Positions 9,223-43,051 of a stretch of 64,000 nucleotides of DNA are shown one piece after another. A program made the translations under genes and the position numbers. Source of the stretch: a virus; the IMG/VR virus record IMGVR_UViG_3300025015_000021, positions 1 through 64,000 of that record; one strand, given 5' to 3'. Within the stretch, counting starts at the first letter, position 1; each line of letters starts with the position of its first letter. The notes beneath the pieces are model-generated. The model was not told where the DNA came from. It saw nothing but the letters and a program-made list of their open reading frames with translations, and made no database searches.

Positions 9223-9270
9223 TTTATAGTGAGCTTGTTTACCCTGAGTTTATCGAATGGGTCGAATCTA
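9223..9270. repeat. nested pair of family A mini-elements
   Basis: TTTATAGTGAGCTTG[TTTACCCTGAGTTTATCGAATGGG]TCGAATCTA. Confidence 0.85.
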
Positions 9271-9278
9271 TTGTATCT

Positions 9279-9307
9279 ATTATAACATATCCCAGTTCAT
9301 TTTTCAA
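9279..9307 (-). promoter_or_regulatory. sigma70-type promoter
   Basis: TTGAAA-17 nt-TATAAT with TGn extended -10. Confidence 0.7.
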
Positions 9308-9310
9308 TAC

Positions 9311-9991
9311 CTATTCTTTTGGTATTTCATTCAAAAACTGTCTTGAAGCATATGTATAATGGTACGAACTTACCAAAGTAGTTCGGTAGTGTTTTCCCAT
9401 TCCTTCAGTTGCATTGCCAAAGTTAATATCAAAGTGGCTCGGGCTATCGCTAAATCTTATCCCAGTCTCAAAAATCTTCTTATTAAAAAGAGTTACCTGG
9501 AAATCTGGATACTTCATTATTTCCAAATTTTCCCTTTCCCACCCAAGTCTTGGAGAAACAGTTGTCGGATAAGTCAGCTTTCCTTCTTTATCAACCGATT
9601 GCTGGTCGAGAGTGATCCAGTCTTCCGGCAAAGTTTCCTTTATCTCAAGCATCTTTTTATCCCATTCCTCTTTTACAATTACATCAGCCTCAATTAAGAA
9701 AACATTATCAAAGACAGGATTTAGTTTTTCATTAAAAAACTTCTGATGGGCATAGCAGAGCCCTATCTGAATTGCTTGACCGAGTCCGTTCTTATGAATA
9801 ATTCCTGTGTAATCCCTCTTAAGCATAATGACTCTTCTAGTTGGTGATGATTTGACTGGAAACTCCCCTAAATCAGAGTCATCGTCTATAAGAATATGAA
9901 GAAACGGATTAACTGTATATTTATCAATAGCCTCTACCATCTCTCTCACTATTTCATAACTTTTATAGACAGGTGTAATTATTAAATTCAT
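9311..9991 (-). CDS. glycosyltransferase family 2-like
   Basis: LIITPVY, ILIDDDS, LIEADV. Confidence 0.75.
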   Translation of the reverse strand: MNLIITPVYKSYEIVREMVEAIDKYTVNPFLHILIDDDSDLGEFPVKSSPTRRVIMLKRDYTGIIHKNGLGQAIQIGLCYAHQKFFNEKLNPVFDNVFLIEADVIVKEEWDKKMLEIKETLPEDWITLDQQSVDKEGKLTYPTTVSPRLGWERENLEIMKYPDFQVTLFNKKIFETGIRFSDSPSHFDINFGNATEGMGKHYRTTLVSSYHYTYASRQFLNEIPKE

Positions 9992-10584
9992 TGTTTAACT
10001 CCCCTTAATCTAAAATCAAACTCAGGTTCTCCATGACCACCCTCTCGGGTTCCATGTCCAAAACCTACCGGAATTTCCTCTATGTTAACAAATCCATGCT
10101 CTACCATTCTAAATTTTAAATATTCTTTAGAATAACCGCACAGATGAAATTGTCCTTCTCCCTCTGCCCCTTGGCTTCCATACAAAAGTCCCATAAATCT
10201 AAACCAATCAGCATTATTTTTCTCATTTGAAATATGCACATTCAAAAATAACTCACAAGCTTTAGTTAAATCGGGAGTCTCAATTTCAACAATACCGCCC
10301 TTTTTAAGTACTCTAAACATTTCTCCAATTGCCTTATTTCCATCATTCATAGATATATGCTCAATTACATGAACTGCTATTACTTTATCAAAATATTCAT
10401 TTGGAAAATCCAGCTTAACTATATCTCCATATAACCATGGAGAATCTGGATATTCTTGATGCCAGGTTTTACCATCCTCCAGATTCATTCCTGGATGAGT
10501 TGACCCTGGATAATAATACTTATCAATGTTGATAAACCCAGGCAAAGGGACATTTCCCGATCCTACATTAAGATATTTTTCCAT
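9988..10584 (-). CDS. class I SAM-dependent methyltransferase (type 11)
   Basis: LNVGSG, HVIEH, RVLKKGG..TPD. Confidence 0.85.
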   Translation of the reverse strand: MEKYLNVGSGNVPLPGFINIDKYYYPGSTHPGMNLEDGKTWHQEYPDSPWLYGDIVKLDFPNEYFDKVIAVHVIEHISMNDGNKAIGEMFRVLKKGGIVEIETPDLTKACELFLNVHISNEKNNADWFRFMGLLYGSQGAEGEGQFHLCGYSKEYLKFRMVEHGFVNIEEIPVGFGHGTREGGHGEPEFDFRLRGVKQ

Positions 10585-10585
10585 A

Positions 10586-11698
10586 TTAAATAACCCTTAC
10601 TTTCGGCAAAGGAATAATGAACTTTAGGTTATTATACTTTTTCAACTTTTCTCTTATCTCTTTCTCATAATTCCAGGCAAGGATTAAGACATAATCTATA
10701 TTTTTAAAATCAGCTTCAGATGGAGGAATTATCCGAATGTGAGTCCCTGGCGTAAACTTACCATACCTTGATGGAGACTCATCAACTATATAATCTAAAT
10801 ACTTAGTATCTATTCCGCAATAGTTAAGTAAAGTGTTGGCTCTGCCTGCCGCCCCAAAACCTATAATCTTTTTATTCTTAAGCAATTTTAATAAGCTTAC
10901 TAATTCCTTCTTATGTTTCTTAACTTTCGTATCTAAGTTAATATTAGAAAGTTTCTTTGTATATACTCTTATTGACCCGCCATGAGTAGGAATTGGTTTT
11001 ACTTCAAAAATATGGAATCCGTATTTTGATAAGAAAGGAGCAAGAGTTGAAACCGTATAATAATTCAAATGTTCAAAGTAAATATTATCATATTGCCCTG
11101 CTAAAATATTTAAAAAATTATGAACTTCAAAAATAAAGAGCCCTCCGTCTTCTAGTAATAGATCAATTCCTTTCATAACATCATCCATATCATCAATATG
11201 GGCAAAAACATTATTAGCCACAACCATCTTAGCCTTGCGTTTAATCTTTTTAGCTATTTTTTGCGTAAAAGGTTCAACTAGAGTAGGAATACCTTTTTCT
11301 CTTGCTAACTTGGCTATCCTTTTATCCGGCTCAACTCCCAAAACTTCTATTCCTAACTGTTGTAATGGTTTTAGCAATACCCCGTCATTACTACCAAACT
11401 CAACTACAAAATCCCCAGGCTTTAGAAACCTCTCAATAAGTTCTCCCGCATAGTTTTTAAAATGAGAAGTAAGCGTGACCGAAGATAAATATGGCTGAAA
11501 AAATTCATCCTCAACTACATCCAATAGCTGAACCAATAAGCAGCTTTGACACTGATAAAGCTTAAGAGGATAAAAATTCTCTTTCCCAAGATTATAGCCT
11601 TCCAAATATGCTCCCTGAGAAGGCTGCTTTCCTAAATCCAGAAATAAGTTAAAATAATTCTTATGACAAAACCTACAATTATTCCTATGTTTAAGCAT
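10586..11698 (-). CDS. NDP-sugar C-methyltransferase
   Basis: CRFC..DLGKQP..YPLKLYQCQSCLLVQL zinc domain, VEFGSNDG, NNVFAH, C-terminal FGAAGRANTLLNYCG..ILAWNY. Confidence 0.9.
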   Translation of the reverse strand: MLKHRNNCRFCHKNYFNLFLDLGKQPSQGAYLEGYNLGKENFYPLKLYQCQSCLLVQLLDVVEDEFFQPYLSSVTLTSHFKNYAGELIERFLKPGDFVVEFGSNDGVLLKPLQQLGIEVLGVEPDKRIAKLAREKGIPTLVEPFTQKIAKKIKRKAKMVVANNVFAHIDDMDDVMKGIDLLLEDGGLFIFEVHNFLNILAGQYDNIYFEHLNYYTVSTLAPFLSKYGFHIFEVKPIPTHGGSIRVYTKKLSNINLDTKVKKHKKELVSLLKLLKNKKIIGFGAAGRANTLLNYCGIDTKYLDYIVDESPSRYGKFTPGTHIRIIPPSEADFKNIDYVLILAWNYEKEIREKLKKYNNLKFIIPLPKVRVI

Positions 11699-41499: not shown

Positions 41500-41642
41500 A
41501 ACACACTAAGCCTGCGGTGCTTCTGTAGTCTCCCCAGTAGATTCTCCCTCTACTGAAGTTTCTACTTGTGGCGTCTCTGTCGTTTCTTCTTTTTTATCCT
41601 CATCCATATAACTTCACCCCCTTCACCATGTTTGACATGGTT

Positions 41643-42017
41643 TCATATAAAATATTTTTTCTTCTTAGGTATCTTTCCGGTTGCCTTCCACCCATATCTG
41701 TCTTTATCCAAATCATATCTTGTATCACTTGGGTCAAAAGTTCTTCCCTTCTTGTCTATTGCCAAAAGTCTTCCAGTCTTTTTGTCATAGCCAAAAGCTA
41801 CTGGATCCCTGAATCTGTGTAAAATAATATTTCCTGAATCTTTTACTTTCAGTTCCTCACAGCAAAAATAAACCAGCTTCTTATGTCCTGGTGATACTTC
41901 TACCCATTCTTTTTGTTCTTTTCGTTTGCAAATAACACATATCTTATTTTTCACCGTTTTTATCTTCTGATTCATGTTCTTTATGCATTTTATAAGCTCT
42001 ATCCGTAATATCTTCAA
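41643..42017 (-). CDS. hypothetical protein
   Basis: ORF with CxxC. Confidence 0.55.
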   Translation of the reverse strand: MKILRIELIKCIKNMNQKIKTVKNKICVICKRKEQKEWVEVSPGHKKLVYFCCEELKVKDSGNIILHRFRDPVAFGYDKKTGRLLAIDKKGRTFDPSDTRYDLDKDRYGWKATGKIPKKKKYFI

Positions 42018-42318
42018 GTTGTATCATTTTTGCTATTTCAATAATTTTTTGGCTCTTCGAACCGCTTATATCTAAAAAAGATTCATTGAGAGTTTCTGTA
42101 GCTTCTTCTAAATATCTTCTTATTTTATCTTTCATTCTTCACAAATCGTCCTGAATCATCCACTAGTTCCTTCGTTTGAGTATAACCACATCTTGAACAT
42201 TCCCTATATTGATATAGCCATGATGGAATTAATACATTCCATTTATTCCACAAATGTTGAGAAAACCAAATCATCTTTCCCTCACTTTTTATATAACATT
42301 GAACTAAATTTTGTCTTT

Positions 42319-42813
42319 TCATTTTCGGATTATTGTCATTATAAATTCCAGAAAGTCATCAGTCTTTTGGATATCCTTTATGGGGTTTTTCACTTGTGGT
42401 GAGCTTGCTTGCCCTGAGCTTGCCGAATGGGTCGAATCCATATCTTTCTCAAAAACTTCATTTACATCGGGATCAAAATAGATTCTCTTCATAATCAGAA
42501 CTGCCTGGGATAAAATTTTCTTTTCCTTTTCCTCAACTGATATAGAATCCAACTTTATTTCAGGTTTTGGTTCCGGCTCATGCTGTATAGAAGCAGACAG
42601 AAATTTTTGTTTTTCCAGCTGAATAAGACTAATAAACAACTGTCTCAACTTACTATACTGCAAGTTTAATGAACCCGTTTTAATTTCTTTCCAGGAAACT
42701 AATTGTAATTTTTTCAAAATTTCCTGCCTAATTGACCTCTGTTTTTTTGTTTTCCTTTTCATCTTGTTTATCCTGAGCTGAGTCGAAGGACTTTTCCTCC
42801 TTATCATTAACAT
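42319..42813 (-). CDS. hypothetical protein
   Basis: ORF containing a nested repeat translated as DSTHSASSGQASSPQ; start uncertain. Confidence 0.5.
   Translation of the reverse strand: MLMIRRKSPSTQLRINKMKRKTKKQRSIRQEILKKLQLVSWKEIKTGSLNLQYSKLRQLFISLIQLEKQKFLSASIQHEPEPKPEIKLDSISVEEKEKKILSQAVLIMKRIYFDPDVNEVFEKDMDSTHSASSGQASSPQVKNPIKDIQKTDDFLEFIMTIIRK
42393..42440. repeat. nested pair of family A mini-elements (48 nt, frame-preserving)
   Basis: CTTGTGGTGAGCTTG[CTTGCCCTGAGCTTGCCGAATGGG]TCGAATCCA. Confidence 0.88.
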
Positions 42814-43000
42814 CTATCTTTTTAGCAAACTCATCCCATGCTTCCATCTGCCCGCAATTATGGCAGGTAATCATATAATAACGCTTCTCCCATTGCACAT
42901 ATAGAAGTGTATCGTGTTTTTTGTCTTCCTTGTCACATTTTAAACAAACAATCTTAAATTTTGCAACCTGTTCCGCCTCAATCGACTGTGTATTTTCCAT
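42728..43000 (-). CDS. zinc-ribbon protein
   Basis: CLKC...CHNC. Confidence 0.6.
   Translation of the reverse strand: MENTQSIEAEQVAKFKIVCLKCDKEDKKHDTLLYVQWEKRYYMITCHNCGQMEAWDEFAKKIDVNDKEEKSFDSAQDKQDEKENKKTEVN
42767..42790. repeat. family A mini-element (inside CDS, SFDSAQDK)
   Basis: TTTA-TCC-TGAGCTGAGTCGAA-GGA. Confidence 0.85.
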
Positions 43001-43003
43001 AAA

Positions 43004-43051
43004 TTTATAGTGAGTTTGTTTACACTGAGCTCGTTGAATGTGTCGAATCTA
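43004..43051. repeat. nested pair of family A mini-elements
   Basis: TTTATAGTGAGTTTG[TTTACACTGAGCTCGTTGAATGTG]TCGAATCTA. Confidence 0.85.

Follow-up and report, generated by a model that had tools for sequence, protein, structure and literature searches.

The DNA analysed here, called the window below, is the first 64 kb (positions 1 to 64,000) of a 93.9-kb IMG/VR phage contig (record IMGVR_UViG_3300025015_000021; 82% complete, 34% GC). It carries 19 copies of a 23-24-nt repeat unit without coding capacity, three composites included, in which one complete unit lies within the loop of another; a structural scan located 3 more units in the remaining contig. We found that the units are insertions, that nests of one unit in another are confined to the loop and have a modal position, and that the family crosses phyla. 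With moderate confidence, we regard the unit as a non-autonomous single-stranded DNA hairpin that is placed by a structure-recognising host activity.

The repeat unit and its three nested composites

The layout of the unit was F-s-TGAG-L-Y-CGAA-(T)-s'. F is a 5' tetranucleotide, which was CTTG or TTTA in the window units, and s and s' are complementary 3-nt arms that form a covarying 3-bp stem. L is a loop tetranucleotide (CTTG, TTTA, CCTG or TTTG), extended to five bases in 14-nt loops, Y is a pyrimidine between L and CGAA, and the T after CGAA is optional. The loop from TGAG to CGAA is near-invariant and 13-14 nt long; its 13-nt pattern was matched 8 times in the window, against 0.43 expected. 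The stems, on the other hand, included seven different triplets in the contig (TCC, CCC, TAG, CAC, TAC, TGG and TGA), and pairing was perfect in all contig copies but one; this exception, outside the window, includes a T.G pair. In the window units, covariation was also seen between the first and the last base of F, and likewise of L (C..G or T..A).

Direct reading and a pattern search gave the same architecture for the composites: F-s1-TGAG-L1 of the outer unit, then a complete inner unit F-s2-TGAG-L2-Y-CGAA-T-s2', then the outer remainder T-CGAA-T-s1'. The three composites are as follows.

Composite 1, 9223-9270, plus strand: outer unit with TTTA and stem TAG/CTA; inner unit 9238-9261 with TTTA and stem CCC/GGG.
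Composite 2, 42393-42440, plus strand: outer unit with CTTG and stem TGG/CCA; inner unit 42408-42431 with CTTG and stem CCC/GGG.
Composite 3, 43004-43051, plus strand: outer unit with TTTA and stem TAG/CTA; inner unit 43019-43042 with TTTA and stem CAC/GTG.

When the window was searched for the composite pattern, exactly these three loci were matched (9230-9266, 42400-42436 and 43011-43047), while 100 shuffles gave no match. All inner units were exactly 24 nt long, and the outer unit was broken after base 15 in all three cases, where the loop tetranucleotide (CTTG or TTTG) ends and a T follows. Within each composite the inner and outer stems were unlike, and every arm pair was complementary; the inner unit of composite 3 has TGAA as its 3' motif in place of CGAA. 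No direct repeat of flanking bases was seen at the composites or at their inner units. An earlier reading of this DNA from its sequence only (the sequence-only reading) had reported the nesting, the differences of the inner copies from one another and from their outer copies, and the lack of a consistent target duplication, and these descriptions were confirmed.

The flanks beyond the 48 nt showed no alignment or homology between the three sites, and a larger duplicated cassette around the nests was rejected on this ground. Composite 1 is intergenic, between a minus-strand promoter-like site and the start codon (9218) of a minus-strand gene at 9006-9218. The promoter-like site (9279-9307, minus strand) is sigma-70-like, with TTGAAA, a 17-nt spacer, TATAAT and an upstream TG, agreeing at 11 of 12 hexamer positions. 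It ends about 8 nt ahead of the composite, and the whole 48 nt would therefore be 5' leader of gene 9006-9218. Composite 2 lies in frame and makes up 16 codons of the minus-strand open reading frame (ORF) 42319-42813, and composite 3 ends 3 nt before the start codon (43000) of the minus-strand gene 42728-43000.

Inserted units and the loop as a preferred target

Comparison with related phages supported the proposal of the sequence-only reading that the units are inserted DNA. No unit copies were present in eight related phage loci (about 110 kb; 50-72% protein identity), and empty sites were found for two copies. Relative to three of these loci (L125, L126 and L132), the copy at 31086-31109 adds exactly 24 nt, or 8 codons, as an insertion whose register is ambiguous by 2 nt. 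The tetranucleotide F was not present at the empty site, and therefore belongs to the insert. At 25912-25944, a whole block of 33 nt is missing at the homologous gene junction (25898) of related phage L126, and this block corresponds to a composite minus the 15-nt outer 5' part. The units are insertions.

Since the 3' arm is partly pre-existing at the empty sites of 31093 and 25919, we considered the idea that the stem is copied from the target. It was rejected because the triplets are GC-rich in a phage of 34% GC and match the set of unrelated bacteria: CCC, TCC, CAC, TGG, TAC and TAG are common to both. The copy at 16061-16083 gave no clean empty site, as the spot is a length-variable loop of a protein family. 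At residues 135-143 of the corresponding ORF (15450-16487), a homologue of 85% identity has a different sequence of equal length, and others are shorter (P0002 and P0006 were compared); different small inserts may have landed at this spot repeatedly. The relatives of this protein (P0002-P0004) are glycosyltransferases of 78-85% identity encoded on contigs of 14-40 kb. No solved structures matched the two host proteins. Cultured phages gave only chance-level matches to the 48-nt composite and included no near relative of the window, and relatives reached via a methyltransferase gene carried no copies and had no synteny.

Nests were then counted more widely in two ways. The first census collected any complete unit situated between two halves of another, and gave about 40 distinct composites outside the window. 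The geometry of the window was found in 16 distinct composites from 7 genomes or contigs, with such stem combinations as TAG with TGG, CCC with TGG, TCC with CAG and CGG with TAC. In 11 composites from 10 contigs, an inner hairpin without F took the place of the outer L; in 4 the insert came straight after TGAG; and 9 had the insert at other positions (2 split L mid-way and 2 split the triloop of 14-nt loops). In the second census, each of 498 complete units was removed with or without F, and it was asked whether a valid unit was restored across the joint. A valid outer unit was restored by 38 of the 498 removals, and all non-tandem joints were located 2-10 bases from the first base of TGAG, that is, in the loop. 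The mode was offset 8, as in the window, and offsets 2, 6, 7 and 9-10 also occurred.

These results showed that nests are confined to the loop and have a modal position. The offsets are far from random in this larger sample, and the apex of the hairpin is the target. The suggestion that the element's own loop is a preferred target was thus supported, because the geometry of the window recurs with different stems in unrelated bacteria and offset 8 is modal. The stronger statement, that units insert at exactly the same base, was true of the three window nests and of the mode of the census, but other offsets and the loop-replacing form also exist; it is a strong preference only, and one of the CTTG/TTTA subfamily.

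Folded strand, proposed mechanism and rival explanations

We asked which strand is constrained using 131 bacterial copies that were chosen by F and loop only, with the stems ignored. All three Watson-Crick pairs were present in 101 of them. Among the single mismatches, 18 were G.T or T.G and 4 were C.A (binomial estimate about 0.004). Only folding of the TGAG strand would be expected to give such an asymmetry, and therefore the pairing constraint acts on the TGAG strand. This strand was antisense to the local genes in 16 of the 19 window units (binomial estimate about 0.004). The antisense bias flips near 48 kb together with gene direction and GC skew, and the excess in the window would be explained equally well by a replication-strand bias or by selection against mRNA that carries the folded strand. 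A general orientation rule was rejected, as no orientation bias relative to genes was seen in the other low-GC carrier loci. Since the TGAG strand is mostly not the mRNA in the window and is unbiased elsewhere, the folded form is most likely single-stranded DNA rather than mRNA. A structured RNA was also rejected: searches with the Rfam 15 covariance models gave no window match at gathering scores or E-value thresholds, and only chance-level hits around sites 2 and 3.

In the mechanism that we propose, the units would be a gene-less, non-autonomous mobile DNA hairpin of about 24 nt, and the three loci would be its composites. On the folded TGAG strand the arms would pair and be followed by a T-A pair, two tandem G.A pairs, a G-C pair and a compact mini-loop, C-TT-G or T-TT-A, with the pyrimidine bulged. 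Tandem G.A pairs and compact CTTG/TTTA mini-loops are known from nuclear magnetic resonance work on DNA hairpins, and are probably ill captured by nearest-neighbour models. New copies would be placed in trans by a structure-recognising, probably host-encoded activity. Where the target is another copy, the insert would enter its exposed apex, mostly at the point where the mini-loop ends and the bulged pyrimidine follows; no other target would be as exposed or fit as well. We infer that a single-stranded DNA intermediate is involved, that the host supplies both the enzyme and the donor copies, and that the nests arose by insertion and not by import of ready-made composites.

Several observations weigh against this mechanism. 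No match to a Y1 HUH transposase (PF01797) at E <= 1 and no GIY-YIG gene were found in the 93.9-kb contig, which is 82% complete. When ORFs within 400 nt of copies were clustered over about 240 loci, no recurring gene family stood beside the copies, and only ordinary phage genes were found. The insertion position is not unique across the family, and the excise-and-test census detects only nests in which both halves of the outer copy stay recognisable, so that nests destroying the outer copy are invisible to it. Nearest-neighbour DNA folding of both strands gave energies within the range of shuffles, so it is the covariation alone that argues for the hairpin. A pre-insertion allele, with the outer copy alone, was found for none of the three sites; for site 3, the viral and metagenome contigs searched contained none. 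Composites and partial composites move as units, and nesting may therefore have taken place in another genome. On the search for an enzyme, 4 of 11 cases in three bacterial genomes had small GIY-YIG ORFs no more than 600 nt from copies. This weak lead is suggestive only, and in one of the genomes copies are so dense that nearness carries little weight.

The sequence-only reading had explained the three nests by independent site-specific integrations. To judge this, copies were compared over 20 aligned positions, where random pairs differed on average at 4.6. The inner copies differed pairwise at 5-6 positions, like random pairs. Outer copies 1 and 3 differed at only 1 position, while their inner copies differed at 5, including a compensated stem change; with outer copies so similar and inner copies random-like, a single composite ancestor in this phage is unlikely. 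Nevertheless, composites spread as units, and therefore the three nests are no proof of three integrations here. It is conceivable, and we think it a real though lesser possibility, that the composite itself is the mobile unit and that the 48-nt nests were made elsewhere, for example in a host chromosome, and arrived ready-made three times. In a 1.8-Mb Pseudomonadota metagenome-assembled genome (G002), 370 kb contain the same composite, with its parts identical, 12 times. The 33-nt insert at 25912-25944, missing in L126, carries part of an outer copy, so partial composites move too, and a nest in a Paceibacterota genome of the candidate phyla radiation (CPR; G001) has the F, stem and loop word of outer copies 1 and 3 in its outer unit. 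However, such an import would need at least three source composites, since the inner units of 1 and 3 are unrelated even though their outer unit is shared, and nesting at the same position still had to occur somewhere. The part of the earlier claim that stood is the exclusion of slippage. Under slippage, a nest would be mimicked by two tandem duplications, one of the 15-nt 5' part and one of the 9-nt 3' arm. Together these add exactly 24 nt, and orphan 3' arms do exist: one is at 25936-25944, and G002 and several viral contigs have as many as four 3' arms in a row. Slippage would, however, yield identical copies, and in all three composites the inner and outer arms differ while each pair is complementary, and loops and F differ too. 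This makes slippage the least probable of the explanations considered.

The mechanism that the sequence-only reading had in mind was a guide-tetranucleotide insertion. As in insertion sequences (IS) of the IS200/IS605 type, or in repetitive extragenic palindromic (REP) sequences with their REP-associated tyrosine transposases (RAYTs), a Y1 HUH enzyme would pair a guide tetranucleotide, located at the foot of the hairpin, with a target tetranucleotide and insert 3' of the latter, and the loop word YTTR would mimic the target. The strand-specific pairing constraint, the characteristic 5' tetranucleotide of each genome (CTTG, CCTG, GTCA, CGGT and others), the absence of target duplication and the location of the insert after a YTTR word in the commonest nest are all in line with this. 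Against it, the 5' tetranucleotide is missing from the empty site, so that it travels with the insert and is not target; no YTTR stands ahead of single copies, whose flanks share no tetranucleotide; other nests come straight after TGAG or split the tetranucleotide; and the contig gave no Y1_Tnp match. Moreover, the ends of IS200/IS605 elements diverge fast, unlike the loop here, which is near-invariant across many phyla. The guide-tetranucleotide mechanism was not upheld, and we consider transposition of this kind unlikely. We also weighed a functional regulatory hairpin, a protein-binding site or 5' leader, which would be kept by selection in one- and two-module forms and would not be selfish. 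Most copies lie 0-17 nt from start codons, composite 1 is placed between its strong promoter-like site and a start codon, and the loop is strongly conserved. Such a function is nevertheless quite improbable given the clean in-frame insertions inside enzymes, the related phages without copies, the lack of an Rfam family match, a constrained strand that differs from the mRNA strand in 16 of the 19 units, and up to 443 copies in 1.8 Mb.

We therefore return to the hairpin placed by a host activity, for which a more far-reaching version can be offered tentatively, as a speculation that is more probably wrong than right. A single near-invariant 13-nt loop may mark a 24-nt hairpin that is copied by a conserved structure-specific activity on single-stranded DNA across phyla, including the tiny CPR bacteria. 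The activity would cut beside the bulged pyrimidine, by the CTTG/TTTA mini-loop, the element's own apex would be its best target, and phages would be colonised in trans while they infect. If true, this would be a new mode of mobility, one that needs no dedicated element-encoded enzyme.

Distribution, known relatives and remaining copies

Only copies with paired arms were counted in other genomes, because the bare 13-mer arises by chance in GC-rich coding DNA. The stem-plus-loop word was found in more than 116 IMG/VR viral contigs with GC fractions of 0.34-0.73, and the same word with F = CTTG in more than 120 bacterial contigs of many phyla. Among the matches listed, bacterial carriers included Acidobacteriota, Pseudomonadota, Bacteroidota, Planctomycetota, Chloroflexota, Spirochaetota and several CPR groups, as well as the Cyanobacteriota Nostoc, Tolypothrix and Nodularia. 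The family is cross-phylum. Its loop is almost invariant across the carrier genomes, while stems vary, with CCC the commonest, and the 5' flank tends to be genome-specific (CTTG, CCTG, GTCA, CGGT, GTTCG or CTCA). In G002, 443 loop matches were counted against 4 for a reversed-pattern control; the corresponding numbers were 27 and 3 in a Paceibacterota genome, and 20 and 1 in a Saccharibacteria genome. Tandem arrays with a period of 23-24 are present in carriers.

The closest known kind of element is probably the small dispersed repeats (SDRs) of Nostocaceae. Elhai et al. in 2008 reportedly described SDR1-8 as compensated hairpins of 21-27 nt with evidence of mobility and with neither a known enzyme nor coding capacity, and some SDR families are said to lie inside their own copies as complex nests and also in tandem. 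The units here resemble them, judged by description, as dispersed non-coding repeats of similar length (23-24 nt against about 21-27 nt), in stem compensation (seven stem triplets in the contig; 101 of 131 bacterial copies fully paired), in filled and empty sites (24-nt and 33-nt insertions relative to related phages) and in self-nesting (three nests in the window, about 40 different composites in other contigs or genomes). The loop of our family is also carried by contigs of Nostoc, Tolypothrix and Nodularia. The existence and outline of SDRs are given in three articles (PMC5861425, PMC3116915, PMC2884548), and one of them reports SDRs as confined to Nostocaceae (PMC5861425). The family here differs in being present in phages and in many phyla including CPR, a difference that again refers to SDR1-8 as described.

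Other known systems have only single features in common with the units. IS200/IS605 elements such as IS608, and their miniatures, insert as single strands in a hairpin-dependent, strand-specific manner, without target duplication and next to a short word; this target word is strict and stays outside the element. In the units described here F travels with the insert, no strict target was seen, the length is 24 nt, and no transposase was found. Rickettsia palindromic elements, selfish palindromes of about 100-150 bp from one lineage, are tolerated in frame and add short peptides. Our units are similar as in-frame hairpin inserts, but they are 24 nt long and cross-phylum. REP sequences and their doublets (REPINs) are short gene-less palindromic hairpin repeats mobilised by RAYT transposases, as outlined in a published article (PMC3116915). 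They share with our family the single-stranded DNA hairpins and the hundreds of dispersed copies as singles, pairs and clusters. REPINs, however, are doublets of REPs of about 20 nt, extragenic and tied to a RAYT gene in the same genome, whereas our unit consists of one 24-nt hairpin, its conserved loop is long, and copies lie in frame inside genes. Its copies are single, in direct tandem (period 23-24) or nested, never inverted doublets in the arrangements seen, and the contig (82% complete) has no RAYT or Y1 gene. The same source states that IS1397 and ISKpn1 insert into the loops of REP palindromic units (PMC3116915). There too the apex of a repeated hairpin is the insertion target, but a full IS with its own transposase enters another element, while here the insert is the target element.

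Self-nesting mini hairpin repeats are already known as a kind, and the presence in phages and across phyla and the defined break point are useful additions. To our knowledge, how DNA pieces of about 24 nt move has been an open question since the cyanobacterial repeats were described. The phage offers a clean and recently colonised background, as its relatives have no copies, and it gives the exact limits of the insert (24 nt including F and both arms) together with the preferred break in the element's own loop. The search for the enzyme is narrowed to a recogniser of single-stranded DNA hairpins that is available to Nostoc, Pseudomonadota and CPR alike, and a concrete substrate for cleavage and strand-transfer assays is at hand. 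For annotation, the units account for odd short peptides in phage and bacterial proteins and for some apparent N-terminal extensions.

Most copies in the window end 0-17 nt from a start codon, and several lie in frame inside ORFs. The units outside the three composites are listed below.

1823-1846, plus strand: 14-nt loop, stem CCC/GGG; in the first codons of ORF 877-1866.
3258-3280, plus strand: stem TCC/GGA; at the junction of genes 3281-4120 and 2146-3288.
16061-16083, plus strand: inside glycosyltransferase ORF 15450-16487 (PF13524), in a loop of variable length among homologues.
24130-24152, plus strand: identical to the 3258 copy; lengthens the UDP-glucose dehydrogenase-like ORF 23326-24162 by 8 codons near its N-terminus.
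25912-25944, plus strand: unit at 25912-25935 and a second, orphan 3' arm at 25936-25944.
31086-31109, plus strand: inside glycosyltransferase gene 30653-32194.
37848-37871, minus strand: co-oriented with genes; directly before an ATG.
38921-38944, minus strand: co-oriented with genes; directly before the start codon of ORF 38370-38921.
41209-41232, plus strand: atypical 5' tetranucleotide ATAA; gene 40859-41191 starts 17 nt downstream.
42767-42790, plus strand: 14-nt loop; adjoins a start codon at about 42765, within the tail of ORF 42728-43000.
43965-43988, plus strand: F and stem (TTTA, TAG/CTA) as in outer copies 1 and 3.
52467-52489, minus strand: antisense to gene 52492-52866 of the plus-strand gene arm; inner copies 1 and 3 have their closest relative here.
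59513-59536, plus strand: co-oriented with genes; within ORF 59398-59694.

The TATTATAACATATC word that occurs near composite 1 is also found after the single copy at 43965.

Leads on the host of the phage were mixed. The closest metagenome relatives of the methyltransferase gene (L406, L407) came from 0.1-micrometre groundwater fractions, CPR genomes (G001, G005) carry both the CTTG and the TTTA loop variants found in the phage, and one homologue (P0064) is labelled Daviesbacteria. Counter to a CPR host, the related 82-kb contig L132 is binned as Actinomycetota.

Some arrangements in bacteria departed from the simple unit. In G002 (loci L373-L392, for example L380 at about 6059 and L389 at about 17860), two 5' arms are followed by as many as four 3' arms, and gain and loss can affect arms one by one there. 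The same genome has arrays of units that grow behind a conserved anchor, and this anchor contains an inverted copy of its own. A bacterial contig (L249) has two adjacent units with their 3' arms apparently swapped, the complement of the first stem coming after the second unit; a circularly permuted insertion, or exchange at the loop break point, would give this arrangement.

Two further repeats were noticed. A Nostoc genome (G004) contains tandem arrays of period 21 with the variant loop word TGAGTTCGCCGAA at C14:125470-125587 and C46:132-270, possibly a related repeat family. In the window, positions 30693-30740, in the overlap of ORFs 30070-30750 and 30653-32194, hold a second type of palindromic unit led by CTTG-TCC with another loop containing GAAG...CGAA, which looks like a distinct but related family of mini-elements.

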